Origin: a virus | Taxonomy: Duplodnaviria > Caudoviricetes | Strand: one strand, 5' to 3' | Length of the DNA stretch: 64,000 nucleotides | Virus record (IMG/VR): IMGVR_UViG_3300021256_001754 | Span: 64,001-128,000 of that record | Shown here: piece after piece, positions 21,705 through 62,423 of the stretch | Numbering within the stretch: the first letter of the stretch is position 1 | Layout: each line of letters begins with the position of its first letter | Made by a program: the position numbers and the translations under genes | The notes under the pieces: generated by a model | What the model was told of the DNA's origin: nothing | Database searches by the model: none | What the model saw: only the letters and a program-made list of their open reading frames with translations

Positions 21705-22412
21705 ATGGCTGTAATTAGTAAGATATTTAAGCCCCGTAGAGGACTGGCAAGCACTATGCAAGGAAGTAAGGCTGGTACTGTACTGGCAGACGGTGAGATG
21801 TTCATAGAAGTACAGGGAACAACCGTAGGAAAGGCTAAATGTAAGATGAAAATGGGTGATGGAACCACTGCATACTCATCTCTTCCATATGCAATGGGTG
21901 ATACATCGTCTGATCCGATCACATTCACACCAAACTCTGCAACAACAGCAGAGACAGCACTTGCATCAGCAACATCCGGTGCTACACTTGCAACTATCGT
22001 TGCAGCAATGAAGAGAGCTATTTCTCTTAACGCTGAGTCAATCACTCAACTAAATGATGACCAAAAAGATTTATCAAATGTAATAGGTACAATGGTTATA
22101 CAACAATATTCTATAAATACTGTAAACTCAGCAGATTTTTTACTTTATAAAAATAACAAAATCGTGAATATCTTTAATGCTGGTTCAATACATTTTCTTA
22201 GTAATGTTGGTGCATATTCTACTGTTACCCTTTTCAATATTCCAGAAGCTTATAGACCGGTGGACGATGATATTTATATCCCTATAATTGGAGCAAACGG
22301 CAAAAGACACCTACTTACGATACACATAGACGGAATTGCGGCAATAGATTCTTGGGTGGACTCTATTGATGCAGGGACATATTTATCAGCTAATGGTGTT
22401 TACATACTCTAA
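21705..22412 (+). CDS. short tail fibre / receptor-binding protein; putative expression locus of the tip-cassette system
   Basis: GGAGGT RBS; residues 1-117 paralogous to N-termini of 18366 and 45089 fibres; junction CTAAA-TGATGAC-CAAAAA at 22055-22061 (LN-DD) followed by a tip domain (LFNIPEAYRP). Confidence 0.85.
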   Translation: MAVISKIFKPRRGLASTMQGSKAGTVLADGEMFIEVQGTTVGKAKCKMKMGDGTTAYSSLPYAMGDTSSDPITFTPNSATTAETALASATSGATLATIVAAMKRAISLNAESITQLNDDQKDLSNVIGTMVIQQYSINTVNSADFLLYKNNKIVNIFNAGSIHFLSNVGAYSTVTLFNIPEAYRPVDDDIYIPIIGANGKRHLLTIHIDGIAAIDSWVDSIDAGTYLSANGVYIL

Positions 22413-22435
22413 ACTATAAACGAATACACAACTGT

Positions 22436-22786
22436 GATGACGTAACTTCGCTAAATGACGCTATTACCCCTACAACACTATCTGGAGTTAATACACATGG
22501 TGCTAAATTTGATAATGGAATGCTATTTTTATGGGGTGAAACATCCCAACCCACAACAACTACAGGTGGGTATGTAAGTACTATAGATTTTCCGCATTCA
22601 TTTAAAGATCTTACTTATAGTGTAACTGCCACATTACAAGATGTAGGTCATGGATATTCAATAATTACAACAGCAGTTGCTGTTGGTATTAAATATACAA
22701 ATAAAATGACATTAAATGCAATTATTGAAAAAACGTATCCTGGTTATACATATATTTATTGGATAGCTATTGGTACTTGGAAATAA
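22436..22786 (+). other. silent fibre-tip cassette C2 (116 aa, gp53/H-lectin-like)
   Basis: starts at TGATGAC 22435; DDVTSLNDAI...KFDNGMLFLWG...YWIAIGTWK; in-frame TAA at 22391, no ATG before the site. Confidence 0.85.
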
Positions 22787-22790
22787 GTCT

Positions 22791-23156
22791 AATGACGCAA
22801 TAAATAAAAATTGGACTAAACTTGGAGATTATAATTTTCAAAATGGTACCAGAGTAGATATTTCTAATATTACTCTTGATGACAAAAATAAGAGATTTAG
22901 AAGGTATAGTATTAATCCTAATAGTTATATAGATATAAATCTTGAAGGTGGTTGGACTTATATTGTAAGCACATCTGGTAATGCATGGAGTGGTGTATAT
23001 ATTATCCAAATGAGAGAAACAGTTGGTTCTAATATGGAAATATATAATATTATAACTGCAGGTGGATGGTCTGTATCTTCTGTAAATAGTTTTACACTTC
23101 GTATTTCTAATACTGACCCAAATTATACTTGTTCGACATACCTTTCTCATATATAA
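22791..23156 (+). other. silent fibre-tip cassette C3 (121 aa, variant site TAATGAC)
   Basis: site 3 nt after C2 stop; NDAINKNWTKLG... echoes the LNDAI of C2. Confidence 0.7.
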
Positions 23157-23169
23157 ATATCAAAATATT

Positions 23170-23195
23170 CCCAGTAGGAGTTATATCCTACTGGG
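23170..23195. terminator. CCAGTAGG-family hairpin closing the expression-locus cassette array
   Basis: CCCAGTAGGA...TCCTACTGGG. Confidence 0.75.
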
Positions 23196-23203
23196 GTTAT
23201 TTA

Positions 23204-23617
23204 TTATTCTAATTTCTCTTTGATTGTATTCTCTACATCTTTGCTTATATTAAAATCCGGATTCTGCTGTCTTATAGTTAAAGATTCTTTTACAGCACCA
23301 TATATAGAACTTATTAGTGCTTCTGTGATAATCTTTGGTGCTAACTCTTTAACCAAAACATTGAGTCTGCCAGTTTTCAATAAGTTATAGACTTCATCTT
23401 TTACATACTCGTCTATATACTTCTCTGTAGATTTCTTAATCTGATTGTTTATAGCGAATCTCATAGCATTATCACCAGTCAATCCACTATCATTGATCTT
23501 TTCATTTACTCTAGATTTAATCTCGTCTTTTACAAGCTGTTCAAATTCATAGTCGTTGATATTATCAACAGCTTCCTTAACTGCTTCTTCTACAGCTACT
23601 TTATTTTCTTCATCCAT
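23204..23617 (-). CDS. hypothetical protein
   Basis: 137 aa, AGGAGGAG RBS. Confidence 0.7.
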   Translation of the reverse strand: MDEENKVAVEEAVKEAVDNINDYEFEQLVKDEIKSRVNEKINDSGLTGDNAMRFAINNQIKKSTEKYIDEYVKDEVYNLLKTGRLNVLVKELAPKIITEALISSIYGAVKESLTIRQQNPDFNISKDVENTIKEKLE

Positions 23618-23640
23618 AAGATATTCTCCTCCTAATAGAT

Positions 23641-23844
23641 TTATTTATTTTTATATTCCATTATTGTTGTATGGAAAGGTTCACTACACTGAGGACAATT
23701 TACAACTTTATATGTTTTATCTGTTTCTTTATCATAAACCTTTTCTGTATCCTCATTCTCATAAGTAAATACACAACCACAATTAGAACAAGTTGCTCTC
23801 TTTTTGGTACCAAATTTTATAATTGTTATCATAATAACCCCCAT
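23641..23844 (-). CDS. small zinc-ribbon protein
   Basis: CSNCGC...CPQC. Confidence 0.65.
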   Translation of the reverse strand: MGVIMITIIKFGTKKRATCSNCGCVFTYENEDTEKVYDKETDKTYKVVNCPQCSEPFHTTIMEYKNK

Positions 23845-23994
23845 CCCAATCTAATTTATTATAAATGTCGACTCTATAATATTTTTATATAATTGGAATC
23901 AATTTGATAATACCGATTTGATTATAAGTATTACCAATAAAATAATATTTGGATATATACTATAAAAATAGAATAATAAAGGAGGATAGTTTAT

Positions 23995-24609
23995 ATGGAA
24001 AACTATGTATTTGAAACTCAATTTGATACTTATGGTTATTTATCACATATAGAGTGTGACAACAAGATTGATATCTCTGATAAGAATGTCAAAATATTAC
24101 TTGACGTATTATCTAGATCTCTCGGTTCGATGATTAAGAGAAACTATAACATGCGTATACAGGTAAGAAATTATCAGGATTATCCAGATCATGATCTTTA
24201 TGTTCATGTAACGGTTGACAAGTTATGTAGAAAAGGTGTAGAGATAAAATTAATTCCACCAACTGATAAATGTACATATACCATGGTATGTACAAATCCT
24301 AAGATGATGTATCATTTTAACGACGAGGATGAAAACAAAGAAGAGTGTTTAGAGGACGATAATAACGACAACGCTAAACTTGATGCTAAATACGATGAGA
24401 TATTGTATGAGAAGTATGAGGCTAAAAAGAATATTAAAAATATAGCTGTTATCCTCCTTACAGACATATCATTATCAATACTGAAGCTTGGAATAATGTA
24501 TACAAAATTTGTCGGTTACGATGATACGATGTATGAAAAGGTTATAGGTGAATCTAGATATAATTTTAGTACAAATGAGTTTGTTATTGAAATCAAAAAG
24601 GAGATTTGA
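23995..24609 (+). CDS. hypothetical protein
   Basis: 204 aa, AAGGAGG RBS, TATATACTATA upstream. Confidence 0.7.
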   Translation: MENYVFETQFDTYGYLSHIECDNKIDISDKNVKILLDVLSRSLGSMIKRNYNMRIQVRNYQDYPDHDLYVHVTVDKLCRKGVEIKLIPPTDKCTYTMVCTNPKMMYHFNDEDENKEECLEDDNNDNAKLDAKYDEILYEKYEAKKNIKNIAVILLTDISLSILKLGIMYTKFVGYDDTMYEKVIGESRYNFSTNEFVIEIKKEI

Positions 24610-24692
24610 TAAAACAGTTAAATCACAATAAAAAGAAAAGTACCAATTAAGGTACTTTTCTTTTTTTTTTTTTATTTTATAATTCTGGATAT

Positions 24693-24974
24693 GATGACTT
24701 AATCAAAAGACAGACAGTAAAAACGGGTGTAACCGGAACAATAATACCTGCTAATGGGGCACAATTATATCACTTACCACCGACAATACCGAGTGGATAT
24801 ATCTATCTTTGCGTTAATATCCGACAAGTTGGAACCGCAAATGGCTGGTTGTATCACGAGTTTTGCCAAGATGAAAATTACTCTTTGGTAATATTTAATC
24901 GTTATTCGAGTGATATAAATCAACCGTATGCAATTGATTATTTCTTTATAAAGGCAAATGTATTGCCGTATTAA
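24693..24974 (+). other. silent fibre-tip cassette C4 (93 aa; absent from ORF track)
   Basis: TGATGAC at 24692; hand translation DDLIKRQTVKTGVTGTIIPANGAQLYHLPPTIPSGYIYL...IDYFFIKANVLPY*; in-frame TAA at 24648. Confidence 0.8.
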
Positions 24975-25015
24975 ATTAGAATAAACTAAAATTAAAGCTA
25001 CCACAACATTTTATT

Positions 25016-25144
25016 ATATGGTGGAGGAAAAGTGTAGACTCTAGTTTATATACTTTAACTTTCGAGTATACGAAGTACAAGGTTGTTTAAACGAGGTAGA
25101 AGCCGACCATGCAAGGTGACAGAAATTCAAATCCTTGCCCATAT
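25016..25144 (+). ncRNA. tRNA-like structured RNA, copy 1
   Basis: ATATGG/CCATAT closing stem, D-arm-like GAG-GAAAAGTGTAGA-CTC, T-arm-like GCAAGG...TTCAAAT-CCTTGC. Confidence 0.7.
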
Positions 25145-25170
25145 TAAATTTTTGAGGAGAGCATCAAGAA

Positions 25171-25272
25171 ATGAATAAATATCATTATGTAATTATTGCT
25201 TTGATATTTTTATTCGGTGTCGAAATCGGTTTTGCAATAGGTGCGTATGTTGCACAAAACTTTTTAAAATGA
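25171..25272 (+). CDS. 33-aa single-TM peptide
   Basis: MNKYHYVIIALIFLFGVEIGFAIGAYVAQNFLK after GAGGAGAGCATCAAGAA. Confidence 0.5.
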   Translation: MNKYHYVIIALIFLFGVEIGFAIGAYVAQNFLK

Positions 25273-25470
25273 AATATTAAAATCTTTGCAAGGAGATTAT
25301 CGAGAATGAAATATTTTAAATTACACCGATTCTTACATCCTTTAAGGTGGCAGGAAATGCAATTCTTTTTTGATTTTCCATATCATGATTTTGATTTCGG
25401 AAAATTTAGAAGATAACTATTTTAAAACGAAATATTAAAATCTTTATATAGAGCATCAAGAAATAAATGA

Positions 25471-25594
25471 ATGTGGTGGTGGAATAGAGTAGACACAAAT
25501 ATTAAATTGTATGGTTGAGTCTGTTGACCCCAGACAGTTATATTGGTACAAATTGACCGTGTAAGGTGACAGAGATTCAAATCCTTACCCACAT
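25471..25594 (+). ncRNA. tRNA-like structured RNA, copy 2
   Basis: ATGTGG/CCACAT, GTG/CAC D-stem, GTAAGG/CCTTAC T-stem; near-identical to copy 5. Confidence 0.7.
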
Positions 25595-25616
25595 TAATTT
25601 TTAGAAAGAGGTTGCT

Positions 25617-25793
25617 ATGTGGATATGTAAAATAGAACCTAATGTAGCTTTATTAAAGTTAGGTGTTTATGAATGTTCTAATTGTCATAAAACCTTGATT
25701 GCATTATCGGAAGACGAAGCAAATACAAAACAACCTAGTATTAGCAATTATATTTTTTGTCCATATTGTGGTAAAGAGCATAATAAGAAATAA
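25617..25793 (+). CDS. 58-aa zinc-ribbon protein
   Basis: YECSNCHK...FCPYCGK; GAAAGAGG RBS. Confidence 0.65.
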   Translation: MWICKIEPNVALLKLGVYECSNCHKTLIALSEDEANTKQPSISNYIFCPYCGKEHNKK

Positions 25794-25797
25794 ATGG

Positions 25798-25958
25798 ATG
25801 TGGTGGAGGAAAAGAGTAGACTCTATAAAGGTAGATGTTAGTGTGACGCTTGTTGGGAATGTAAGCCGAGATAAATCTAAGCTATGAGGAAACCCTAGGC
25901 TATGTACGACCTATATAACATCATGCAAGGTGACAGAAATTCAAATCCTTGCCCACAT
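25798..25958 (+). ncRNA. tRNA-like structured RNA, copy 3
   Basis: ATGTGG/CCACAT, GAG/CTC, GCAAGG/CCTTGC with longer central region. Confidence 0.7.
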
Positions 25959-25984
25959 TAACTAGACTTTTGAAATGATCCTTA

Positions 25985-26013
25985 ATACCAGTAGGATATT
26001 ATTCCTACTGGTA
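25985..26013. terminator. CCAGTAGG-family hairpin
   Basis: ATACCAGTAGGA...TCCTACTGGTAT. Confidence 0.75.
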
Positions 26014-26078
26014 TATTTATAGCCAAAACATTATTATAAATAAGGCCTATTTAATTTTAAAGATAAGGAGAAAATGCC

Positions 26079-27254
26079 ATGGATACTCCATTATTTGTTA
26101 TCAAAAATATTTTTGAACATGAACTTGTTCCTGCTTTTAGAGTTATGTCTGCTAGATATAATGAAAGCAATAACAATAGTATGCTGGATATTACTGATAA
26201 TTTATGTGATATCACAAATAAGATTGTTACCGATTGTGAGTGTAGTGCTGTAATAGCAACGTTTAACCCAGATAAACCAAAATTCGGTGTTTATGTAAGC
26301 CCTACAATAATCGATTCAGATCTTACAAAATTTATCTTTGATAAAGAGGATATGAAATTAACACGATATTCTGCAGAGATAGATTTAGGAATGTTTGATC
26401 TTCTTACTCCTGAAGAAGTAGCAGCTGTATATATTGAGGAAATAACTACAGTAATGAGTAAGGTTACTATCGATAAGGTAAGAGGTATATTTGAAACTAT
26501 TATGACTGATAGAGATCTTACGATTAATTTTAGAGAATCAGTAAATTTCTCTCAGCTATTAATATTTGGTATAAAGGATACAATTCGTAAAGTTGCATCT
26601 TGCATATACAAACCAGAAGATGAACTTGGTACAAATGAATATGCTATAGAGTTTGGTTATAACGAGGCTTTGAAAACTATTATAGCAAAACTACATACAT
26701 TTATTTGCGATGGTATGGCTGTGGAAGTTAATCCTAAACTTAGTGTATTAAGCTGGGTTCTTTCTGTATATAACGAGCCAAGTATCAATTACAGACTTAT
26801 GCTTGAAGATCTTAATGCTGCTTTAGCATTAACAGGTTCTAAACTTGAACAGGATGAAGTATCTAAAACTATAACAAGTCTTAGAAGAGCAACAAATGAA
26901 ACTCTTGTAGAGACGGTTATTAAAGAAGATAGTTTATTTAAGAATCTTAAGCAGAATGGTTTACGTTCTATAGAAGACGATCTTTATGAATATAAGATAA
27001 GGGTTAAGACTTGCGAAACAGAAGACGATGCAATGTATATTCTACATCAGGTATCTACAAGAATAAATATTCTTGAAGATTACTTATATAATACACCAAA
27101 TTTATCTGAATATGAAATTCAGAGATGGACAAATGTAATTAATGCCTATAAACAGTTAAGACTCGAAATCAGCAAGAAACCTATAGTTGATAAGAAACGT
27201 TATGGTATATTTGTTGATTATGATTATCTTGATAGGCTTGATAATAAAGACTGA
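26079..27254 (+). CDS. probable virion structural protein
   Basis: 391 aa, AAGGAG RBS, AACA-N6-TA at 26027. Confidence 0.55.
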   Translation: MDTPLFVIKNIFEHELVPAFRVMSARYNESNNNSMLDITDNLCDITNKIVTDCECSAVIATFNPDKPKFGVYVSPTIIDSDLTKFIFDKEDMKLTRYSAEIDLGMFDLLTPEEVAAVYIEEITTVMSKVTIDKVRGIFETIMTDRDLTINFRESVNFSQLLIFGIKDTIRKVASCIYKPEDELGTNEYAIEFGYNEALKTIIAKLHTFICDGMAVEVNPKLSVLSWVLSVYNEPSINYRLMLEDLNAALALTGSKLEQDEVSKTITSLRRATNETLVETVIKEDSLFKNLKQNGLRSIEDDLYEYKIRVKTCETEDDAMYILHQVSTRINILEDYLYNTPNLSEYEIQRWTNVINAYKQLRLEISKKPIVDKKRYGIFVDYDYLDRLDNKD

Positions 27255-27269
27255 TAAGGTGGTATAGAA

Positions 27270-29060: not shown

Positions 29061-29114
29061 AATATAATACCTCCTGTATAAATTATATAAATGTCTATAT
29101 AAAATTATACTACT

Positions 29115-29480
29115 GATGATTTTACTCTTTTGTGGACAAATCCTAATATAATTGCAGAATTTGCTGCACAAAAACTTTCAATTAATTTATCGAATTATAA
29201 AGGTGTTTTTATTGATTTTTTAGAGTATATTGGTGAATCTGTTCGTCAGAATATTGTAAATATTATTGCAATGGTGGGCACACCATATAATTATATTATA
29301 TTTGCTCCATTTTTTCAAAAAATGGACGAATCTGAAACTCCTTTAACACAAAATATGTCAGGTAGAGAATTTAAAATTTTAGATAACACAGGAATTACTT
29401 TTTATAACACTTATACTATAAAAGGTATAAATAATAAATTATGTATACCTTATAGAATTTATGGTATTAAACATAATTAA
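29115..29480 (+). other. silent fibre-tip cassette C5 (121 aa)
   Basis: TGATGAT at 29114; DDFTLLWTNPN...FAAQKLSINLSNY...IPYRIYGIK typical Firmicutes-phage tip; in-frame TAA at 29100. Confidence 0.85.
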
Positions 29481-29552
29481 TCAAAATAATATTTCTTGTA
29501 CTGATCTTTGATTATTCTATATAAAAGTTTATTATATCTTCTAGAGATATCT

Positions 29553-29954
29553 CTAGAAGATATATTTTGGGTTTATACTTCTAATTTTATCATAAACAGC
29601 TTTCGTTATTGGTATTTGATCATAATCTTCTACACTCCAAATTTTTTCTAATATATCTTCTCCTACTCTATATAAAGTACAAAGACTTCCATCCATACCA
29701 GTAACTTTTTCCGGAATATTTTCTATATTATCAATAATCTCTTTATCTATAGTAACCAAATTATCAGGTACATAATCAATTTTTAACGATCTTTTTGCAA
29801 TTATATTTTTATTATTGATTATTTCTTTTGGTAAATAATTTCTTCTACAAGCACCTTTAATAAAATTTATAATACCATTTTCAGTAATTAAAAATGCATG
29901 ATCTGTAATACCCCATCCAGATTCTCCGATATAAACAAGATATTTATAATTCAT
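29553..29954 (-). CDS. hypothetical protein
   Basis: 133 aa, AAGGAGG RBS. Confidence 0.65.
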   Translation of the reverse strand: MNYKYLVYIGESGWGITDHAFLITENGIINFIKGACRRNYLPKEIINNKNIIAKRSLKIDYVPDNLVTIDKEIIDNIENIPEKVTGMDGSLCTLYRVGEDILEKIWSVEDYDQIPITKAVYDKIRSINPKYIF

Positions 29955-30014
29955 ATTAAACCTCCTTTTAATTATAAAAAAGTTTTATAACTATTAATCG
30001 TTTATTATACTGCT

Positions 30015-30353
30015 GATGACGTAACTTCGCTAAATGACACTAAACTAAATAATACTGCTTATGTTATATCAGAGCATTTTGTTGCTAATACAATATCAAT
30101 ACAATATACTATGCCTTCACAACCAACATGTGGATTATTAATAATATCTGCATTTTATGATGGACAAGATCAATATGGATCAATTTGTATATCAGTCCCA
30201 TATAATGGAGGAGCTATTTCATGCATATCACCTGGTATTGAATCATATAGTCCTATAATAACTTATATTGATATTATTAATAACCAGGTTAATATATCTC
30301 TTGAACATCAGCAGTCTTGGGGAGGCTCGACAAAACTTATATACATTAAATAA
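30015..30353 (+). other. silent fibre-tip cassette C6 (112 aa)
   Basis: TGATGACGTAACTTCGCTAAATGAC identical to start of C2; in-frame TAA at 29988. Confidence 0.85.
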
Positions 30354-30705: not shown

Positions 30706-30883
30706 ATGTGGTGGCGGAATAGACATCAAGGAAGATGGTAAAAATTGTGTGCTGTGATTACAACAGAGTCAATTAATAGTAGACGCTTTATCGAAAATGT
30801 ATACCTACGGCAAAATGGAACATTGTTAGAAAGACAAGTAGTCCGTTAAACTTGTCATGTAAGGTGCAAATCCTTACACACAT
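30706..30883 (+). ncRNA. tRNA-like structured RNA, copy 4
   Basis: TTAATGTG/CACATTAA, GCGGAATAG...GTAGACGC with insertion, 7-nt T-loop GTAAGG-TGCAAAT-CCTTAC. Confidence 0.65.
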
Positions 30884-30895: not shown

Positions 30896-31019
30896 ATGTG
30901 GTGGCGGAAAAGTGTAGACGCAAATATTAAATTGTATGGTTGAGCCAGTTGACCCCAAACAGTTATATTGGTACAAGTTGACCATGTAAGGTGACAGAAA
31001 TTCAAATCCTTACCCACAT
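30896..31019 (+). ncRNA. tRNA-like structured RNA, copy 5
   Basis: GCG/CGC D-stem, GTAAGG/CCTTAC; near-duplicate of copy 2. Confidence 0.7.
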
Positions 31020-31153
31020 TAATTTCGTGAAAACCTCGTGATTTTGGAGAACATAATGAGTACATGGTTAGAATGTTTATTCGGAATATGGCTTGTATTG
31101 AATATCTTTAAAACCATTAAAGACCTTGCATCATAATTGGAGAGCATCAAGAA

Positions 31154-31303
31154 ATGACCGTTAAAGAATTAATTGAACTACTCAAAAAGCAAAATCAAGA
31201 TGCCGTTGTTTACCATGATTATGACGGTGAATTGGCTTTGATAGTTACCGACGTCTCAGCAAATGCAGTAGGGAGTCAAGAGGAAACGGTTTTGCTGTCT
31301 TAA
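31154..31303 (+). CDS. 49-aa phage protein (MTVKELIELLKK...)
   Basis: hand-translated; preceded by GGAGAGCATCAAGAA. Confidence 0.6.
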   Translation: MTVKELIELLKKQNQDAVVYHDYDGELALIVTDVSANAVGSQEETVLLS

Positions 31304-31320
31304 TTAAGGAGCATCAAGAA

Positions 31321-31641
31321 ATGAATATCATAGAAACAATCATAGCTATTTTATTTAGCTTAATATATATCGGAGCTAACATTCTTGTTATGCTTGATGA
31401 CAAAATTAGTAATTTTGGTAATGTAGATGGATTTAAAAAGACTTATCTGTCAGATATCGGAAATAAGTTTGAAGTAGTAAATGATTCTTCGAATTGTCTC
31501 ATACCTATTTCAGAACTTCCGGAAGGAGGAAATGGTAATATTGTGGCCATTTGGATTGGATATGTACAAAATGTTGGAAATAGATTATATGTCAAAGATA
31601 ATGAAGGAGCAGTTAGATACATCCTTTTAACAGAACCTTAA
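31321..31641 (+). CDS. chimeric ORF: 25-aa TM N-terminus fused at TGATGAC to cassette C8 (31396..31641)
   Basis: hydrophobic MNIIETIIAILFSLIYIGANILVML then DDKISN...; site at 31395. Confidence 0.65.
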   Translation: MNIIETIIAILFSLIYIGANILVMLDDKISNFGNVDGFKKTYLSDIGNKFEVVNDSSNCLIPISELPEGGNGNIVAIWIGYVQNVGNRLYVKDNEGAVRYILLTEP

Positions 31642-31887: not shown

Positions 31888-31925
31888 AAAATAAATTGAG
31901 GTGGAGATAAACTCCACCTCAATAG

Positions 31926-32398: not shown

Positions 32399-33694
32399 TT
32401 ACAGTAATTTAGCAGCTAATTTACTGAGTAGACTTCTTACACATTCATCTTCTGTAAATGTAAGTTGTCCAACCATAGTCTGATTCCTCATCTTTTCTGC
32501 AGTATAGATCAATCCATTACTTGTATAATCAAGTCTAGGATTATCTATCTGATTTGGATCTCCACAGAGAACAATCTTTGTTCTTTCACCGGCTCTCGTT
32601 ACAAGAGTCTTAGCCTGTATTCTTGTCATATTCTGAGCTTCATCTACAACGATAAAAGCATCCTTAATACTACGACCTCTTATATAAGCCATAGAACAAA
32701 TCTCTATAATTCCTTGATCAATAAGATCCTGTGCTTTCTCACTTAATACAGAGAGATTATCATAGAATGGATATAATAATGGTCCCATCTTTTCTTCAAG
32801 ATCTCCTGGTAAGAATCCTAAGTCTTCTCCATCAGGTATAGTATTTGTTCTGGTTATATACATCTTACTATATTCACATTTATCCTGAATAAGATATAAC
32901 CCAACAGCTAATGCTAAGAATGTCTTTCCACAACCAGCTGGTCCAATCATTAAGTTTAAAGCAATATCAGGATTAAGCAGCATCTCTATAGCATACTCCT
33001 GAGCAGCATTACGAGCTTTACAACCAATCTTCTTATTACCAGATATAAGATTAAGTTGTCCATTCTGGTATATAGTTAATGCAGAATGTCTGTTACCACT
33101 TAGAGTTTCATAATCCTCAACTCTGACAAATTGGTTCTCTTCAAATGGTTCGTGATTTTCTATTTTATTTGCATCTACAGATTTATTACTATAGATTTCA
33201 TTAACAATATCTGCTGAGGTTAAAATCACTTGTCTTCCTGTATATAACTTCTCACTTGATACATGATCGTTCTTATAGTTCTGAACTTCAACTCCTAATG
33301 CTAAAGCATCTATAGTTAAATTTGTATCGTTTGTAATAAGAATTACTTTGTTCTTTGGATGGAGTTTTGCCAACTTCATAGTTGACATGATAATTCTATT
33401 ATCAGGTTTACTCCGATCAAATCCTGATGGTGTATCGACATCTTCGAAGTCATCCATAAAGAGGAAAAGTGTACCTTTATTTTCCATCTTTACACCTTTT
33501 ACAAGGTTCCCTTTAAGTGAGACTATTTCTCTCAATATTCTAAAAGTTTCTCTGGCGGCAAACTCATGCTTATGCCTGTCTAATTCTTCCTTTACCACAT
33601 ATGGAAGAATTACGTAGTTGTCATCGAATCCTCTTAAAGCATTTCCACAAGTTTGGAATAGAATATTGGTGTCGAGAACGTAATATTTCTTCAT
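32399..33694 (-). CDS. phoH: PIN-PhoH family protein (PhoH2/YlaK-like)
   Basis: YVLDTNIL PIN domain, GPAGCGKT Walker A, GFLPGDLEEK, YIRGRS, DEAQN, GDPNQID. Confidence 0.9.
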   Translation of the reverse strand: MKKYYVLDTNILFQTCGNALRGFDDNYVILPYVVKEELDRHKHEFAARETFRILREIVSLKGNLVKGVKMENKGTLFLFMDDFEDVDTPSGFDRSKPDNRIIMSTMKLAKLHPKNKVILITNDTNLTIDALALGVEVQNYKNDHVSSEKLYTGRQVILTSADIVNEIYSNKSVDANKIENHEPFEENQFVRVEDYETLSGNRHSALTIYQNGQLNLISGNKKIGCKARNAAQEYAIEMLLNPDIALNLMIGPAGCGKTFLALAVGLYLIQDKCEYSKMYITRTNTIPDGEDLGFLPGDLEEKMGPLLYPFYDNLSVLSEKAQDLIDQGIIEICSMAYIRGRSIKDAFIVVDEAQNMTRIQAKTLVTRAGERTKIVLCGDPNQIDNPRLDYTSNGLIYTAEKMRNQTMVGQLTFTEDECVRSLLSKLAAKLL

Positions 33695-54287: not shown

Positions 54288-54298
54288 ATTATATTGCT

Positions 54299-54637: not shown

Positions 54638-54643
54638 CAAGCT

Positions 54644-55033
54644 GATGACGTAAATAATATATTTCAAGGTCCAACTATAATGGATGCAAATGCTGCTCCG
54701 GTTGGTATAAGTTTCTTACCAATCGAAGCAGCAAATAACCCTTTAAATTCTTGGGCAACACTTATCACTACTTGTCCACAAGCTAATTATAAACAGCAAA
54801 TATGTACACCATGGTTTAATAATTTTAGAGAAATATGTTTTAGAGTTTATGATTATGATGGTTGGAAATCGTGGTCATTAATTCCATCAACAAGTCTTGG
54901 CGACCCTTTGAATGTAACTAATACAAATTTGTCTTGGACCGCTGCAAGTGGACGACAAAATGATTGTACCCCTGTACATTATGATGGTAGAGCATTTATT
55001 TATGTAGATGGTAATAAATTATACCTTACATAA
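54644..55033 (+). other. silent cassette C13 (129 aa, knob-like)
   Basis: TGATGAC at 54643, 5 nt after C12 stop; DANAAP...QQIC...FRVY...WKSW. Confidence 0.85.
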
Positions 55034-55216
55034 TATCATATTGATAATCTAAAAAGAAATTATCCCTAGGATTAATACCCTAGGGACAATTTATAATTTT
55101 CATAAATAAATTGGGAGATTTATTTTATGACATTATTTTATAGTTGTAAATTAAATCTTTTACAAATATATACTATAATTGTAGAAACATAAAAACCTAT
55201 ATGGAGGAAATTAAAA

Positions 55217-55804
55217 ATGAGCAATTTAATGATGTGCCCACATTGTGGGAAAGTTTATTTAAAAGAAACACTATCGGCTGATATTCAGGGTAGATATTTT
55301 TGTCCAGATTACGAGGATAGAAATAATGAGCTATTCGAAGTAGATGAGCAGATGGTTGTTGTTTTAAGACGTTTATGGGATTTAGGTTATTGGACAGAAT
55401 TCTGCTGTAGTGGTCATTATTCAGATACCAATCTTCCTTATATTCTGTTTGCTGATAGAGATCTTGCACCATGTACTCATCCTAAGAACTGGTTTATTCA
55501 GGATATAGAGTATTTGGATGATAATGACAAACTTGTTCAGAGTAAAACCGGAATATATGGAATTGTATCTAGTAAGAAAATAACAACACCAGAAGAAAGA
55601 CAGATCCGTAACAATAAGCTTATGAATGAACTGGTTAAGTGGGTTATGGATCTTGAACCTAATCCTATACCAGAAGCTCATGATGCAACAAAATGCTTTA
55701 GAGATGGTGATTCCACATATTATGGAGAAGATGGTTATAATATCTTTCCAGATAAATGGATAACAAAGAGTACACATTGTAGATATAAGAGAAGACCAGA
55801 ATAA
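55217..55804 (+). CDS. zinc-binding hypothetical protein
   Basis: CPHCG, GYWTEFCCSGH; GGAGG RBS. Confidence 0.65.
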   Translation: MSNLMMCPHCGKVYLKETLSADIQGRYFCPDYEDRNNELFEVDEQMVVVLRRLWDLGYWTEFCCSGHYSDTNLPYILFADRDLAPCTHPKNWFIQDIEYLDDNDKLVQSKTGIYGIVSSKKITTPEERQIRNNKLMNELVKWVMDLEPNPIPEAHDATKCFRDGDSTYYGEDGYNIFPDKWITKSTHCRYKRRPE

Positions 55805-56019
55805 ATGTATTTATAAAGCTGAGGATAATTCCTCAGCTTTCTTTTTCGCATCTTCGACAGATTTACAAGCAAATACTCGTTGTCCGGCAGGATTATTCAT
55901 TATAAGAGTATAACTACCAGCTTCATATTTTATAACAAATTTCAAATCTACTGTATGGTAACAATTACCGCAACTAATCCATTTAATCATAAGAAATATT
56001 TCCTTTCGTATTTTATTTT

Positions 56020-56439
56020 TTATTCTTTTATAAACCATTCATAGAATAATTCAGGTTCTATACCTTCTTTAAAGCAGGATAATAATTTCTCTGCTGATAT
56101 TTCTATAACTTTTTTTCCAATACACATATTTATTATATATGCATCATGATACTTGTTCAATTTCACTTTTTTATCATTTTTAAGTGTTGGTACAGTTAAA
56201 AAACAAGCATCAATGCCTATACAATTTGTAGTTATAAAAATCATTAATCGATGTAACCAATCGAGATAATTTATATATTCTTTTTCACATTCCGATCTAT
56301 ATTCGTTATCTTCTTTATTGTCTTTTAATGGCAGTATGGTCAAATGATTTTCACATATAAAAATACCAATAAAGAATAAGATAACCATAACCAAGAAAAT
56401 ACCAATAGCCACAATAATACTATAATATAATAACTCCAT
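56020..56439 (-). CDS. membrane-anchored hypothetical protein
   Basis: N-terminal TM helix. Confidence 0.6.
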   Translation of the reverse strand: MELLYYSIIVAIGIFLVMVILFFIGIFICENHLTILPLKDNKEDNEYRSECEKEYINYLDWLHRLMIFITTNCIGIDACFLTVPTLKNDKKVKLNKYHDAYIINMCIGKKVIEISAEKLLSCFKEGIEPELFYEWFIKE

Positions 56440-56902: not shown

Positions 56903-56936
56903 ATAAATATAATATCCATTCTTTTGGATTGCTTTT

Positions 56937-57254
56937 GATGACTTAAAATTCAGGATAAACGATGTTGCTAGAATATATGGTTTTTATAACAAGTTGTATG
57001 TTTATGTCAAAGATCTTTCGGCACAATATTTTTATGGAGCTGCAAAAGTTATTACTGAATATGGTGAAAATACAATTGGATTAATGGGCTACGATGGAAC
57101 ACAAACAGATACAAGTAGCCCTATAAAAACATATAAGCATAATAACAATGGTATGCTCGATATTCAATTTGTTTTCCCAAATACATATACACATGGAGTT
57201 TTATTATTAGGTGGTTCTGTAGTGAGAGGAAAAATAATAGATGGAACAGATTGA
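56937..57254 (+). other. silent cassette C14 (105 aa)
   Basis: TGATGAC at 56936, in-frame TAA at 56910. Confidence 0.8.
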
Positions 57255-57342
57255 TTAAAAGAGAATAAAATACAACATAATCAAACTCGTAAGAAATACA
57301 GTAAATATATCCCAGTAGGATACATTTCCTACTGGGATTATA

Positions 57343-58224
57343 CTATCTCATAGCATTTGTCATTCTCTTTTCCTCATACATTCTTTTATCAGCCAATTCT
57401 ATTAATTCGGACACTATTTTAGTTTCTGACGAGCTAGCCGCACCAATACTGGTAGATACTTTTATTTTTCGCATTCCAACATACTCTATGTTGTTAAACG
57501 CCCCTAATATGCGGTTCTTAATAGCATCTATATCTAACTTTGATTCAATTTGTGCTACAATACAGAATTCATCTCCACCTATTCTAGCTACTATATTATT
57601 CTCCCCAAATTCACTTCCTAATTCTATAGCAACTTTAATAAGCACGTCATCCCCAAATCCGTGACCATATGTATCGTTTATAATTTTGAATTTATTTATA
57701 TCCAAAAAGAATACTGCATAATCTATATGATTTATCTCATGCATTTTCTCATATTCTTCAATATAAACATCTAATCCTCTTCTATTAAGCAATCCTGTTA
57801 ATGGATCTTTTAATACGAGATCTTCAAGTTGATGTGTATGTCTATCTACTTCAGTTACATCAATAAAGTATCCCCATAGTCCAATAATTTCATTGGTTTT
57901 CTTATCATAAACAGGGAACTTATTAGCAACGATATTTCTATTCTCTCCTCGGATAATGCAATTTCCCCTAGCATTACATATAACTTCCCCATCTTTAATA
58001 ACTTTAATCTCGTCTGATTTAAAAGGTTTAGGATTTACATGCCATTTCATTTCCTCGTCGTTTTTGCCCACAACTTCATCCAAAGTAATTCCATAGTAAT
58101 CTAAAAAGAATTTATTTACCCCCAAAAACTTCCTATCCTTATCCTTCCAAAATATCCCAACATCAATATTATTTAAAATTGAGTCTAATAAAACTTCTGA
58201 GGTAAAAGGTATTAAATTACTCAT
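57343..58224 (-). CDS. PAS-GGDEF diguanylate cyclase
   Basis: PAS (IFWKDKDRKFLGVN), DPLTGLLNRR, DINKFKIINDTYGH..GD, ARIGGDEF, ADKRMYEEK. Confidence 0.9.
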   Translation of the reverse strand: MSNLIPFTSEVLLDSILNNIDVGIFWKDKDRKFLGVNKFFLDYYGITLDEVVGKNDEEMKWHVNPKPFKSDEIKVIKDGEVICNARGNCIIRGENRNIVANKFPVYDKKTNEIIGLWGYFIDVTEVDRHTHQLEDLVLKDPLTGLLNRRGLDVYIEEYEKMHEINHIDYAVFFLDINKFKIINDTYGHGFGDDVLIKVAIELGSEFGENNIVARIGGDEFCIVAQIESKLDIDAIKNRILGAFNNIEYVGMRKIKVSTSIGAASSSETKIVSELIELADKRMYEEKRMTNAMR

Positions 58225-58317
58225 AAATAACCACCTCTAATCTCATATGGATAATTTAATAAAATGTTTTAGTACAATAAAAAATAAAAGGCAGGTTGAA
58301 TTTCCTGCCTTTTATAT

Positions 58318-58956
58318 TTATCCGTGTGTCCAATTAGTAGCAATATCGAATGTGACACCACTACCATTATGTGTAAAATCTCCAGTATCGGCTACTATAC
58401 CTTTACCGAGAGATGTGTCTACTATACTACCATATGGATATATGTCCCAATCAGCAGCGACCATTATATAGTCTCCAAACATCTTGGCACCATCTTCGCG
58501 AATCCAGTAGTCTCCCTCATATCCCTTCTCTCTGAGGGTGCGTAATACGCCTTTCATATTAAGGTCGTAATACGTCTCTTTTCCACACGGACCATTGAAT
58601 ACACCAAGTTGTTTGGTAAGCTTAGGACCATCTGGAACAGGATTTAATATCTTTATTTTTTCGTCAGATACCAAATCTGCTCTGACATACCCACCACCTT
58701 CAACTGCTAACCATGCAGTATCAGTGATTGAATATTCTATCTGGGTGTTGATTCTGAATGTATCCAGTATCTCTGACTCAGTGTTAGGTTCTGCTCTTAA
58801 CCTAACACCATCCTTTGTGTAACCTGTTGCTGCACAACTACTTAGATTACTAAAAGCAATAACGTAAAATATCGCCATAACTAAAACAACAGCAGCAATT
58901 TTGATAACGTTCTTTTTCATTTTCTCGTCCTCCTTTAAATGAATTTCACGTTTCAA
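58318..58956 (-). CDS. secreted SH3-domain / 3D-like cell-wall protein
   Basis: signal-like N-terminus, VRLRAEPNTESEIL, GSIVDTSLGKGIVADTG...FDIAT. Confidence 0.65.
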   Translation of the reverse strand: MKREIHLKEDEKMKKNVIKIAAVVLVMAIFYVIAFSNLSSCAATGYTKDGVRLRAEPNTESEILDTFRINTQIEYSITDTAWLAVEGGGYVRADLVSDEKIKILNPVPDGPKLTKQLGVFNGPCGKETYYDLNMKGVLRTLREKGYEGDYWIREDGAKMFGDYIMVAADWDIYPYGSIVDTSLGKGIVADTGDFTHNGSGVTFDIATNWTHG

Positions 58957-59058
58957 CTACATTAATATAGTATATAATTTTAATCCTTCAAAATTACATA
59001 CTATACGTTATATTATTTTTATAGTATATAACCAAAGTAAAAAATACCCAGTAGGAGT

Positions 59059-59520
59059 TTATCCTACTGGGTTATAAAATTTATTACCGTTTAAAATCGC
59101 TAAAGCATATTGTACATGAACCCATCCTAAGCCATTTCTATAAAAATCTGTTTTTACAAAATGTCTTTCTATCTCATCGTCATAGTCTCTAAATCTTTCA
59201 TCGTCTATTACACACCACGCGTCTATGTTTTGGTGTTCGTTCAAATATTTATGGATAGCTGTACCACGTTTACCACCTAGATGATCAACCTGATCAAATA
59301 TAAACAGTTTATGTTCTGCTAATCTACGTTCAAGATATAATAAGTTCTCTTCTATATTCATCCAACTAGAAGTCAAAACTAAGTATGCATTAGATTGTTC
59401 TACAATAGACTGTAATACTTCTATCTTTTCGTCATCTAGTCCAATTATAAATTTACTTAGTCTATCTTGTGTATCTTGACAGTTTAAAACCCCATCTATA
59501 TCAAGAAAAATAACTTTCAT
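59059..59520 (-). CDS. HAD-domain protein (Swiss-army-knife RNA-repair type)
   Basis: FLDIDGVLN, LTSSW, VIDDE. Confidence 0.8.
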   Translation of the reverse strand: MKVIFLDIDGVLNCQDTQDRLSKFIIGLDDEKIEVLQSIVEQSNAYLVLTSSWMNIEENLLYLERRLAEHKLFIFDQVDHLGGKRGTAIHKYLNEHQNIDAWCVIDDERFRDYDDEIERHFVKTDFYRNGLGWVHVQYALAILNGNKFYNPVG

Positions 59521-59546
59521 ATTACCACCCCCTTATTATATTCATA

Positions 59547-60944
59547 TTAATCTTTATGCTGATTCTTGATTCTAGAATCGTTAATATTATTCATTGTAAT
59601 AATTGTCTCATTTACATATTTCATATCTGCATAGAATACCAAGTTGAGCATTAACTCTTCATCTACAGGGTTCTCAAGACATATTATCTTCTTACCATAA
59701 TCAACTCGTATATCAACGCATCTAGCTTGATCAAATTGTTGTGACAGATACACTTTAGTATCGATAAACATTCTTGGATCTAATCCCATCTTTATAGTAT
59801 AATCTATAACCTGAGTTATATTACCACCACCATTCAGTATAGAAGATATATCGATAGTCTTTTCATTTCTATCTGTCATATAACTTGTAAGAGCAAACTG
59901 AGCCCATCCCTTTTCATTAACAGGTGGAATCTGGAATGGATTGACAGTATATAGAGAAACAGAAGTTTCTGGATCTTTATCATACACAGTAAGTTCATTA
60001 CCAATATACTCTTCTTCAAATAGCACAAAGAAATGAGGTATTGGTATTGTCAATACCGCTTCCATTTCTATATCATAGTTATCGTATAATTTTCCAACCT
60101 GATCCCCATCATTAGGTTGTAATTTATTCAGACAAGATATATGAGTATAGAGATCATCTATTCTCATAAAATAAGCCGGTTGTTGGTTTATTCCTCTCAT
60201 CTTACATATGATAGGAAGATGACTATGTCTATTAAGATAATTTGTCAAATCGCATATATCTTTCTTCTGTATCAGCATCTTTCCAGTCTCTGGATTCTTT
60301 ACTAATTCAAATCCAGCTTTACATGCTAATCCAATAATACATGATTCTGGTATATGAAAATCTATACTGCATCTATCATGCCATGTAGAACCAATCTTAA
60401 AACATAACTCCATTCTATTTAAAGCATCTAATTGTTCAGATCTAGTATTAAATCTAGCTCTAAAAGCAAATGTCATCTTTAAAGCTCTCATACGACAATA
60501 GAGATATTGTTTTGATTCAAAGTCTTTTAAAAATGATTGCTCATAGTCTGAAGTTTTTAAAAAGAGATGCTCGTTACCTTGATATAAATCAATATTCTCT
60601 CTATTGAAATCATACTCTATAGTGGGCACTATAGATAACATTGGTTTTTCTCTTTTGATATTATAATTATTAAACTTTTTCCAGTCTGATAATACATGTT
60701 TACCGTTGATATATACTGTTTTAAAATACTCTTTAGGAAATTTAGCAAGAAACCAATCTCTCATATATTCTATAGCTAAACTATATCCATGTACATATGA
60801 CGGTAAAGATAATTGTTTATATAATTTAGGACGATATAAGAAAAAGTCTATAGGGAGATTTGTAATATGTGTCTGTGCACCATTCTTACGTTTTTCATTT
60901 ACTATCTCTCTAATACTAACTGGTTTAAATCTATTCTCGTTCAT
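59547..60944 (-). CDS. probable virion structural protein
   Basis: 465 aa; AAGGAGG RBS; TACA-N6-TA upstream on - strand. Confidence 0.5.
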   Translation of the reverse strand: MNENRFKPVSIREIVNEKRKNGAQTHITNLPIDFFLYRPKLYKQLSLPSYVHGYSLAIEYMRDWFLAKFPKEYFKTVYINGKHVLSDWKKFNNYNIKREKPMLSIVPTIEYDFNRENIDLYQGNEHLFLKTSDYEQSFLKDFESKQYLYCRMRALKMTFAFRARFNTRSEQLDALNRMELCFKIGSTWHDRCSIDFHIPESCIIGLACKAGFELVKNPETGKMLIQKKDICDLTNYLNRHSHLPIICKMRGINQQPAYFMRIDDLYTHISCLNKLQPNDGDQVGKLYDNYDIEMEAVLTIPIPHFFVLFEEEYIGNELTVYDKDPETSVSLYTVNPFQIPPVNEKGWAQFALTSYMTDRNEKTIDISSILNGGGNITQVIDYTIKMGLDPRMFIDTKVYLSQQFDQARCVDIRVDYGKKIICLENPVDEELMLNLVFYADMKYVNETIITMNNINDSRIKNQHKD

Positions 60945-61033
60945 AAAGGTTTCCCTCCTTTGTTATATAGATGTAATTCTTAGGATAAATTATGAGGTTG
61001 GGAATTATATCCCAACCTCGTTATATTATACAT

Positions 61034-62074
61034 TTATGACAATGGTTTTATTTCTACAGTCTGAACGTAGTTTTCATTCCAAACTCCATTAGAATCAAGC
61101 CAGCAATATCCTCTACCCTTACTATCCTTGATATAGCAATTCTTAGCCATTGCACCATCACTCTTAAGATAATACCACTGACCCTTATACTTAATCCACT
61201 GATTAGCAAGCATCTTTCCATCAGCACCGAGATAATACCACTCTCCCTTATACTGAAGCCATCTGTTAGTATAAGCAGCACCATCAGAACCAACATAGTA
61301 CCAATCATTTCCGGTCTGAACCCAAGTATTTGCAGCCATTGCACCACTCTTTCCAAGATAATACATCTTACCTTCGTCGGTAATCCATCCAGTCTGCATA
61401 ACACCATTATTATCAAAATAGTACCATACTTCTTTGATTTTATACCAACCATGTGCATTCTGACCAGGAGCTATTCTATAATACCATACTGATCCAGTAT
61501 CTATCCATGTAGGATAATCTGCAGTATCAACATTTGTTGTATTAGGCTGAGCTTTCTTACCTGTAGTAAGATTTGTTGCTGCATGATGGTTCTCATACAA
61601 TAAAATATCTCCAGGGAGAAGATAATCGTCACTTGTGAGATATTTAGAAGCTGTCAATACCTGGAATCCAGCTTTCTTAAATGCTTCTTTCATATTACCG
61701 GAATAGATATCTTTTGAGAGTGATTTAAGTTTAGCTATATTATATTTATATCCGGTAGCCTTTACACATGCAGTAACACCAGCAGTACAATCAGCATCAC
61801 ACTTATTAACGATCTTGCTAGGATCATAATTAGCATACTGAAGCTGAGTCCAGAATGAAGTACGCTTATACTGATTGTACCCAACGTTATCATTCATTGC
61901 TGCTTTATAAGCATTCTCTGCTATAGTATAAGCAACTGTTGGATCTGGATATCTTAATACTACAGTCCAAGGACGATTATACCATCCTATAACAGCCCAC
62001 TCTGTTTTAGTCTGGTCTCCGGCAACTCCACCATGATACTTTCCATTTTCGTCATGTCCACTATTGGAAATCAT
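61034..62074 (-). CDS. endolysin: NlpC/P60-CHAP-like catalytic domain plus cell-wall (choline-type) binding repeats
   Basis: DCTAGV...GDILL...HH; repeated WYYxxxxGxMxxxW. Confidence 0.8.
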   Translation of the reverse strand: MISNSGHDENGKYHGGVAGDQTKTEWAVIGWYNRPWTVVLRYPDPTVAYTIAENAYKAAMNDNVGYNQYKRTSFWTQLQYANYDPSKIVNKCDADCTAGVTACVKATGYKYNIAKLKSLSKDIYSGNMKEAFKKAGFQVLTASKYLTSDDYLLPGDILLYENHHAATNLTTGKKAQPNTTNVDTADYPTWIDTGSVWYYRIAPGQNAHGWYKIKEVWYYFDNNGVMQTGWITDEGKMYYLGKSGAMAANTWVQTGNDWYYVGSDGAAYTNRWLQYKGEWYYLGADGKMLANQWIKYKGQWYYLKSDGAMAKNCYIKDSKGRGYCWLDSNGVWNENYVQTVEIKPLS

Positions 62075-62129
62075 AAGTCTATCCTCCTTTATAGATGATC
62101 ACTAAATTATTATCTTCATGTGAAAGGAT

Positions 62130-62423
62130 ATGATAAATTACCAAGAATATATAGCATTTTTCTCACCTTTTGATGAAAAACATTATGGAGAAAAATATAT
62201 GAGTGTATATACTGATACAAATGGTAATATAAATTTAACTCAAGAAACAGGTGTTTATCCTACCAATTTTATATCTATTACGGCAGACAACACAGCAAAT
62301 TCATTATTTATATACCCTTATACTTACTATGAAAATTTATATTGTAGAGTAAAGCATGGATTTATAGTTGAAGATTATATCAATCAACGAGCCGATTTTC
62401 ATATAATCTATATAATAGATTAG
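62130..62423 (+). CDS. ORF with 14-aa leader fused at variant site TGATGAA to tip-like cassette C15 (62172..62423)
   Basis: site in frame at 62171; TDTNGNINL... tip-like segment. Confidence 0.55.
   Translation: MINYQEYIAFFSPFDEKHYGEKYMSVYTDTNGNINLTQETGVYPTNFISITADNTANSLFIYPYTYYENLYCRVKHGFIVEDYINQRADFHIIYIID

Follow-up and report, generated by a model that had tools for sequence, protein, structure and literature searches.

The window analysed here, the 64,000 nucleotides at bases 64001–128000 of the 249,585-bp IMG/VR phage record IMGVR_UViG_3300021256_001754 (termed G000; G+C approximately 31%), carries an expressed tail fibre gene (21705–22412; coordinates refer to the window unless marked 'genome') in which an N-terminal anchor is joined to a tip domain at a short core sequence, TGATGAC, read as part of the peptide LNDD. 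The same core begins a series of further reading frames, termed cassettes, that consist of a C-terminal domain and a stop codon, lack a ribosome-binding site and a start codon, and have their 5' end at TGATGA(Y). Comparison of strains supports a reading in which whole tip domains would be swapped onto the one anchor at TGATGA/LNDD, with the start-less frames forming the pool.

The anchor comprises 117 amino acids, and a search of 5.8 billion proteins with it recovered 62 homologues, whose anchors can be aligned as far as ...IT(Q/K)LND(D/E) and are unalignable immediately afterwards. The initial annotation of the window had counted two paralogous fibres; there are four anchor paralogues in the genome, all in fibre-like genes. 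The anchor itself gives weak PHROG tail matches and the paralogues give strong tail-fibre and hyaluronidase N-terminal matches, while the upstream neighbours of the anchor gene in relatives carry the Mtd_N domain (PF18454). In an AlphaFold2 (AF2) model, LNDD falls within a long, confidently predicted helix (residues 95–136), tip A being modelled with low confidence, and a helical neck at this position could let domains be exchanged without disturbing either side. The anchor, tip A and the next two cassettes, B and C, were recovered at 99.9% identity in two independent SRA assemblies, and the arrangement is therefore not an assembly artefact.

The hexamer TGATGA is scarce in this genome. An order-2 Markov model predicts 163 copies over both strands and 28 are present, an approximately six-fold depletion, with 26 copies on the plus strand and two on the minus strand. 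TGATGAC occurs 12 times on the plus strand (11 of these in the window) and never on the minus strand, and the 16 copies of TGATGAY in the window are all on the plus strand. Since neither GATGA nor TGATG is depleted, and a distant relative of similar composition (G002) contains 407 copies of TGATGA and no cassettes, the depletion is specific to the hexamer and to the lineage. Nearly all of the remaining copies open a frame in the register T-GAT-GAN, reading DD or DE followed by 36–247 codons; a random frame has a chance of about 0.2 of staying open over 60 codons or more.

We scored a site as start-less if at least 60 codons were open, a stop codon lay no more than 20 codons upstream and no ATG, GTG or TTG intervened. 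A random plus-strand position passes this test with P = 0.013, and it was passed by 10 of the 17 window sites (P = 2e-15) and by 12 of the 26 plus-strand sites of the genome (P = 1.6e-16). Fourteen frames besides the junction had been listed in the initial annotation. All are present and open for 68–129 codons in the GAT-GAY register, and for ten of them (22435, 24692, 29114, 30014, 31680, 53112, 53966, 54298, 54643 and 56936) a stop codon is found 1–14 codons upstream with no ATG, GTG or TTG in between. The list was too generous with 31395, which lies in an ordinary gene, with 62171, which has an ATG, and with 30360, which has TTG codons, and it had missed 19583, 21543 and six cassettes outside the window; 22790, with the variant TAATGAC, holds a nested in-frame TGATGAC at 22877. 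Nor is the junction at 21705–22412 the only one to be expressed, as had been claimed. Gene 31321, which encodes approximately 25 hydrophobic N-terminal residues, LDD and then a tip-like domain, has its own Shine-Dalgarno (SD) sequence and ATG and is for that reason a second expressed fusion and not a silent cassette, and a 764-aa fibre carries the motif in frame.

Ordinary genes of the phage start with a GGAG-type SD sequence and ATG, and the cassettes have neither. The ATG embedded in the core was ruled out as a start codon, its frame closing within 2–11 codons. An alternative genetic code or stop read-through was also ruled out, the upstream stops being a mixture of TAA, TAG and TGA, and adjoining cassettes lie mostly in different frames, which counts against read-through as well. 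A special initiator tRNA was excluded, as the sole tRNA of the whole genome is a tRNA for Thr.

Across 21 sites, conservation is confined to TGATGA and a Y-biased seventh base, and no recombinase arms or dyad symmetry were found around the core at these sites. The T ahead of GAT is invariant at 21/21 sites, and because it occupies a third-codon or non-coding position the core signal is a nucleic-acid one. The reverse complement, TCATCA, is nearly absent from the plus strand irrespective of gene orientation, and selection is therefore on double-stranded DNA or on either single strand, not on the mRNA sense. The purge of the hexamer from both strands implies that double-stranded DNA carrying TGATGA would be acted on. 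Avoidance of a Type III restriction system was ruled out as the sole cause of the strand bias, there being approximately 6 non-cassette plus-strand sites against approximately 80 expected.

Comparison with other strains shows the same anchor joined to different tips. The proteins P0002 (anchor 100% identical) and P0003 (96%) each have an unrelated tip. In P0021, which lacks the N-terminal part, the anchor is 100% identical over 70 aligned residues, and the tip has its homologue in a silent cassette, the one on the minus strand at genome 53007. In a second species the anchors of P0009 and P0031 are identical through LNDD; the tip of P0031 is the one expressed in the IMG/VR record G001, and that of P0009 matches a silent cassette of G001 at 96.5% identity. 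A third pair in which a cassette silent in one genome is expressed in another is formed by contigs L118 and L120, the expressed tip of the former having 45% identity to a silent cassette of the latter. Among database protein pairs with anchors at least 95% identical, most tips have no detectable similarity, and the break falls exactly after LNDD. The expectation that related genomes would show different tips at the anchor locus is borne out behind anchors of 96–100% identity, and of the host-range switch that had been proposed it is the exchange of tips on one anchor (P0021, P0009/P0031, L118/L120) that stands.

At the DNA level, homology of G000 to L118, L119, L120, L121 and L216 spans 21536–22065 and ends at the core (at 22060–22065 in L118, L120, L121 and L216), the seventh base of which goes with the incoming tip. 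On the left, homology with L118, L119, L120 and L216 begins at 21536–21538, and L118 and L120 read TAATGAT at the orphan site at 21543. Breakpoints relative to close strains are located at the cores 21543, 22055–22061 and 30014–20, and the same anchor is elsewhere joined to flanks whose distances from it in G000 are 7.5 kb, 33 kb and -33 kb. Beyond its new tip, L118 continues with the flank of cassette 29114, in a block that ends exactly at the next core (30014–30020). L120 continues with an array that positionally matches 53966/54298/54643, in which the promoter-like motifs are the same as in G000 and the cassette bodies are unrelated, and then with 55058–56237; L121 continues with the flank of the cassette at genome 53007. 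As the anchor gene stays behind an Mtd_N-type fibre gene in all relatives, it is the DNA downstream of the core that changes. Blocks between cores are rearranged among strains whose shared sequence is 89–97% identical, and deletion and permutation fit these short contigs alike.

The relatives are human-gut metagenome contigs of 255–296 kb. The GenBank phage collection gave no match by megablast or tblastn, nor did the anchor as a single-protein query against IMG/VR, and IMG/VR and JGI metagenomes, scanned for exact 16-mers and 20-mers, returned chance matches in unrelated DNA only. G001 (119 kb, 48% complete; anchor 60% identical) contains 29 copies of TGATGA, all on one strand, against 69 expected: one is the junction, 27 of the 28 others open start-less frames of 66–152 codons, and none lies elsewhere. 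In L213, taken from a scaffold of 296 kb, the junction is accompanied by 13 start-less cassettes in a span of 10 kb, with none upstream or on the other strand. In L211 and L212 the same junction is followed by two to four start-less cassettes; the shared word is longer (TAAATGATGA in L212), and the hexamer is not purged. The most distant anchor homologue, L217, has three start-less cassettes at the variant TAATGAT, two direct and one inverted, which share 12 nt and a 96-nt common 5' region. Large libraries therefore accompany the minimal 6-bp core and its genome-wide avoidance.

In G000 the cassettes extend over approximately 90 kb (Table 1). Tandem cassettes are separated by 3–22 nt only, and no shared 3' boundary motif was found, just ordinary hairpins after the last cassette of arrays. 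A Pfam and PHROG search of the genes between cassettes for a hidden nuclease or recombinase gave nothing informative. The cassettes at 22435 and 30014 begin with the same 25 nt (DDVTSLND; regions 22435–22470 and 30014–30049). Their sequences part immediately behind a nested CTAAATGAC, the likeness of which to the main junction suggests that recombination may also have occurred at a second, junction-like point.

Table 1. The expressed fibre gene, core-bearing sites and cassettes of G000 (window coordinates unless marked 'genome').
Feature	Coordinates	Strand	Remarks
764-aa tail fibre	18366..20660	+	PHROG tail-fibre matches; N-terminus 54% paralogous to anchor
In-frame TGATGAT (V-DD) inside 764-aa fibre	19583-19589	+	motif register
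Orphan TGATGAT, only 14 open codons after	21543..21549	+	left edge of anchor module
Expressed fibre gene, 235 aa	21705..22412	+	anchor 21705-22055, tip A 22056-22412; GGAGG SD and ATG
Junction core TGATGAC, read N-DD	22055..22061	+	recombination breakpoint in strain comparison
Cassette B, start-less, 116 codons	22435..22786	+	Gp53-like tail-fibre C-terminal domain
Cassette C, variant core TAATGAC, nested in-frame TGATGAC at 22877	22790..23156	+	
Terminator-type hairpin closing array anchor-A-B-C	23170..23195	+	
Start-less cassette, 93 codons	24692..24974	+	
Promoter-like AATTATACTAC abutting TGATGAT, then start-less cassette of 121 codons (LLWTNPN...IYGIK domain)	29103..29480	+	
Palindromic hairpin 3' of cassette 29114	29534..29563	.	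L118 homology resumes here
Promoter-like motif, TGATGAC and start-less cassette, 112 codons	30002..30353	+	L118 block ends exactly at 30020
Tandem cassette, 105 codons	30360..30678	+	only TTG codons upstream, inside preceding cassette
Ordinary gene with SD and ATG	31321..31641	+	TGATGAC at 31395 read LDD
Start-less cassette, 68 codons	31680..31887	+	hairpin after, 31898-31920
Start-less cassette, 76 codons	53112..53343	+	equivalent position in L120 holds anchor module
Promoter-like motif, TGATGAC and start-less cassette, 106 codons	53955..54287	+	first of three-cassette array
Promoter-like motif, TGATGAT and start-less cassette, 112 codons	54287..54637	+	
Start-less cassette, 129 codons, pyocin-knob-like (a lead)	54643..55033	+	hairpin 55063-55086 closes array
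Start-less cassette, 105 codons	56936..57254	+	
TGATGAA frame, 83 codons	62171..62423	+	ATG 13 codons upstream; may have own start
More cassettes outside window	genome 129005, 133124, 134514, 135937, 142440	+	
Sole minus-strand cassette	genome 53007	-	

We scanned 17 cassettes. One passes a Pfam tip model, cassette 22435 matching Gp53-like_C (PF21882) with 38.4 bits against a cut-off of 24.9, and the others match no family. Cassette 54643 has an ESM Atlas feature score of 0.94 to 'pyocin knob' clusters, its structure is matched by C-terminal parts of BppU, XkdV and Phage_fiber_2 proteins, and the predicted resemblance to a pyocin knob is offered as a lead. The domain of cassette 29114 occurs three times in protein P0183. 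Ratios of non-synonymous to synonymous substitution (dN/dS) for paralogous or allelic cassette pairs are 0.97, 1.0 and 2.8, with frames open and indels in multiples of three; purifying selection was not seen in these pairs, the ratios being approximately 1 or higher. Intact frames combined with such ratios therefore indicate coding sequence under diversifying selection, not relics. On balance we hold it more likely than not that the start-less frames are a library of tail-fibre tip (receptor-binding) cassettes and, jointly with this, that they are exchanged at the level of DNA at the 6–7-bp core.

The only recognisable recombinase of the genome is a 344-aa tyrosine recombinase (PF00589), encoded at genome 222219–223253, in which the catalytic R, K, HxxR, H and Y are present. 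It is XerA/XerC/XerD-like, the best model being XerA-like; with the integron-integrase models of NCBIfam it stays far short of the threshold, reaching 74 bits where the cut-off is 265 and 52 bits where it is 435. The whole genome has no match to serine recombinases (PF00239), which are matched in 13 of 14 control genomes, and none to reverse transcriptases (PF00078, RVT_1); no Y1 transposase, TnpB or IS110 transposase was found in the genome. Scanning the full genome on both strands has thus added sites to those first listed, and has yielded one tyrosine recombinase and no reverse transcriptase. Homologues of the recombinase with 62–64% identity apparently lie on the same contigs of approximately 255 kb as the relatives' fibre genes. 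In L217 the gene is located between cassettes 6507(+), 7517(+) and 11397(-), 1.5 kb behind the fibre gene; no homologue was found in G001, a record that is 48% complete. Tyrosine recombinases typically exchange a 6–8-bp asymmetric overlap region, and it is for this reason that we tentatively put forward the Xer-like enzyme as the best candidate.

In the mechanism that we propose, recombination within the 6-bp core would place a different cassette behind the anchor, and the same recombination would reshuffle the DNA blocks lying between cores. The reaction would be site-specific and, we infer, catalysed by the Xer/XerA-like tyrosine recombinase of the phage. As the cores are direct repeats, this would entail excision of a circle between two cores and its re-integration at another core, or exchange between replicating copies of the genome, a scheme that fits the block rearrangements seen between strains. 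The outcome would be a population of phages, or of fibres, with differing receptor specificities.

Several observations weigh against this mechanism. Conservation of 6–7 bp only, with no recombinase-binding arms, is atypical for tyrosine recombinases. The recombinase gene lies approximately 136 kb from the fibre gene in G000, and it is also kept in relatives that have two to four cassettes and no purge, so that it may serve another role, for example dimer resolution. Direct repeats make simple recombination deletional, and many genes lie between the cassettes. Furthermore, the arrays look like transcription units, and a purely DNA-donor model needs no such features. At least 30 genes (e.g. window 9857, 23956, 32349(-), 55169 and 58979(-)) have in front of them a strong promoter-like consensus, AAATTATATACTAT-N5-TG, the layout of which (AT-rich box, 6 nt, G) resembles the early promoters of the AR9 and phiKZ virion RNA polymerases. 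A motif similar to this consensus abuts the core at four window cassettes and at the minus-strand cassette at genome 53007; it sits at the first cassette of several arrays, and a hairpin follows the last cassette of each array. Lastly, hexamers containing AACAT are two- to four-fold depleted genome-wide, which recalls the AACA element of AR9 late promoters (PMC5312081); avoidance of a signal in this genome can therefore have transcriptional causes.

A stronger version of DNA-level exchange, in which TGATGA would be the substrate of programmed, frequent recombination in the replicating genome pool, is possible, and we advance it with reserve. It would proceed by integron-like circle excision and re-integration, or by deletional joining like that of immunoglobulin class switching, and sterile transcription from the promoter-like motifs would possibly help. 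If this were true, each burst would release virions displaying or encoding many tips on one anchor, a receptor repertoire system with in-frame cassettes and a purged 6-bp site that is undescribed for viruses.

Among the alternatives, the one that survives best, unlikely as we judge it, dispenses with dedicated machinery: general or illegitimate recombination in cells co-infected by related phages would have swapped the tips in the course of evolution, with homology on the left provided by the conserved anchor and junction, and on the right by conserved genes or terminators downstream. The start-less frames would then be displaced former tips that are retained as spares, and the purge would stem from a host restriction system or a transcription signal. 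That right-hand homology resumes at conserved hairpins and genes is as this scenario would have it, as are the missing recombinase arms and the depletion of other words (palindromes, AACAT), and in L211 and L212, where the hexamer is not purged, start-less cassettes follow the same junction and the sequence they share is longer (as in L217). However, in the two whole records searched, sites off a cassette or junction number approximately 6 in G000 and none in G001, and the other strongly depleted words of G000 are not shared by G001 in the same ranking. Twenty to 29 intact cassettes per genome would be hard to keep as relics, since AT-rich DNA closes frames fast, and the T before GAT is beyond protein selection and yet unvarying at all 21 sites. 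The rearranged blocks, moreover, distinguish strains that are still 89–97% identical in shared sequence.

The promoter-like motifs, the hairpins and the AACAT depletion keep an RNA-level or transcription-assisted mechanism in consideration as a minority reading. Here the cassettes would be used as RNA or protein, the DNA fusions of other strains being secondary: each array would be transcribed from promoter-like motifs of its own, and its RNAs would be joined to the anchor mRNA at UGAUGA by cleavage-ligation, template switching or primed initiation or, in a protein-level variant, tips would be translated by an unrecognised initiation route and attached non-covalently. Motifs abutting the core at five cassettes (four in the window and genome 53007), array-ending hairpins and the position of all cassettes but one downstream of the anchor on the same strand agree with such a use. 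We nevertheless regard it as improbable, for the sense strands have been cleared of TCATCA to the same degree as of TGATGA, and an mRNA signal needs no such purge; the fused genes are present as DNA in several metagenome assemblies; and the farthest cassettes are 57 kb distant, with blocks of genes on the opposite strand in between. As to translation, there is no near-cognate start and no SD sequence, the core ATG is in a closed frame, and the single tRNA (Thr) leaves no special initiator tRNA. Finally, the notion that these are ordinary small genes with unrecognised starts, or a coincidence of codon usage, could be entertained for sites 62171, 31395 and 30360, which have possible upstream starts, but is hardly credible for a start-less pattern of P ~1e-16 that recurs in G001 and L213, lacks the GGAG and ATG of ordinary genes and involves domains that are fused to anchors elsewhere.

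Some further observations concern the phage and the surroundings of the cassettes. A multisubunit RNA polymerase beta-like subunit of phiKZ/AR9 type is encoded at 8511–9806 (phrog_2962, E 3e-72), which places the phage among jumbo phages with phiKZ/AR9-like transcription. A long structural module is also encoded, the genes are split about evenly between both strands, the tRNA count of the whole genome is 1, and Rfam gave no match on the window. The slot between the large fibre and anchor genes holds a 212-aa open reading frame (ORF) at 20844–21482 (-), and its minus-strand genes are unrelated in different strains; in L118 (3–554) and L120 (2–175) it holds a Cys-rich zinc-ribbon protein, homing-endonuclease-like, the copies being 41% identical. 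A PIN-PhoH fusion protein is encoded at 32399–33694 (-), and its G001 homologue lies inside the G001 cassette cluster.

At genome 142440–143188 (L124:14440–15190) there is a 247-codon start-less cassette with TGATGA on both sides and no Pfam match. A 16-nt perfect palindrome occurs in exactly two copies in 250 kb (L123:2296–2311 and L123:2575–2590; genome 52295 and 52574). The pair flanks a 263-bp spacer with an orphan TGATGAT, beside the only minus-strand cassette, and in L121 the 3' flank of this cassette is found on both sides of the palindrome unit, inverted. The unit may represent either another site of recombination or an artefact of assembly; as a general site the palindrome was ruled out, there being two copies only. 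Five related non-coding elements lie behind cassettes (25016–25150, 25471–25590, 25798–25960, 30706–30880 and 30896–31020), with a shared 5' part, ATRTGGTGG.GGAA.AG.GTAGAC, a variable centre and a tRNA-like 3' part, …TTCAAATCCTT.CCCACAT; neither ARAGORN nor Rfam gave a match on these five. A near-identical initiation region, GGAG.GCATCAAGAA-ATG, precedes several small ORFs (25150–25175, 25448–25470, 31136–31156 and 31305–31323).

Of the known systems, the R64/IncI1 shufflon is similar in that a constant N-terminal part (PilV) receives alternative C-terminal receptor-binding segments by DNA recombination at short repeats, and in its tyrosine recombinase of the Xer/integrase superfamily (Rci there, the candidate enzyme here). 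Its sfx sites, however, are of 31 bp (a 7-bp core and a conserved arm; approximately 19–31 bp) and form inverted repeats in a block of approximately 2 kb beside rci, whereas here the sites are co-oriented (26 plus and 2 minus in G000; 29 and 0 in G001), only TGATGA(Y) is informative, 20–29 cassettes are spread over approximately 90 kb, the recombinase gene is distant and the core word is purged genome-wide. Mu Gin, P1 Cin and p15B Min likewise alter host range by exchanging the 3' part of a tail-fibre gene, but these are Din-family serine invertases acting on 26-bp inverted crossover sites with two to six alternatives, in contrast to the direct repeats and lack of a serine recombinase found here. 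Integrons also have co-oriented promoterless cassettes expressed from one site and an XerC/D-related integrase, and excision and re-integration of circles is predicted here as well. They differ in having attC hairpins at cassette 3' ends, cassettes with their own start codons, no in-frame fusion and an integrase gene beside attI; here there is no attC or inverse core (250 kb contain two copies of TCATCA), cassettes are joined by translational fusion and the recombinase is not adjacent to the expression site.

Neisseria pilE/pilS and Borrelia vlsE/vls share with the present system promoterless, start-less partial copies that feed one expression site, and diversifying selection. RecA-dependent gene conversion in those systems relies on conserved blocks that flank the variable segments left and right. 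Here the shared sequence is confined to 6–7 bp at the 5' end, with no common motif at the 3' end, and the rearranged flanks point to reciprocal or deletional events rather than to conversion. In diversity-generating retroelements (DGRs), such as that of Bordetella phage BPP-1 (Mtd), it is again a phage receptor-binding tip that is diversified, and the neighbouring fibre genes of our relatives carry Mtd_N, but a DGR relies on adenine mutation driven by reverse transcriptase in one variable repeat, whereas here whole domains are replaced and no reverse transcriptase is detectable. The distinctions from Gin/Cin, shufflons and DGRs that the initial annotation had drawn hold, with co-oriented sites, no serine invertase and no reverse transcriptase.

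The literature that we searched contains no description of such a system. We conclude that it represents a new form of cassette-based receptor switching, with a substantial chance of a new kind of mechanism. The predicted helical junction at LNDD may offer a natural, portable splice point for engineering the fibres of laboratory phages, and the avoided core, if it acts as proposed, would with its 6 bp be remarkably short for a natural recombination site. Inversion switches and DGRs would then be joined by a third principle by which phages vary their host range, the in-frame joining of start-less cassettes of one orientation at a minimal core. Should the cassettes be used in this way, an uncultured clade of human-gut jumbo phages holds 20–29 ready receptor-binding domains per genome, redeployable on one fibre, which would explain how these phages track diverse or changing hosts.

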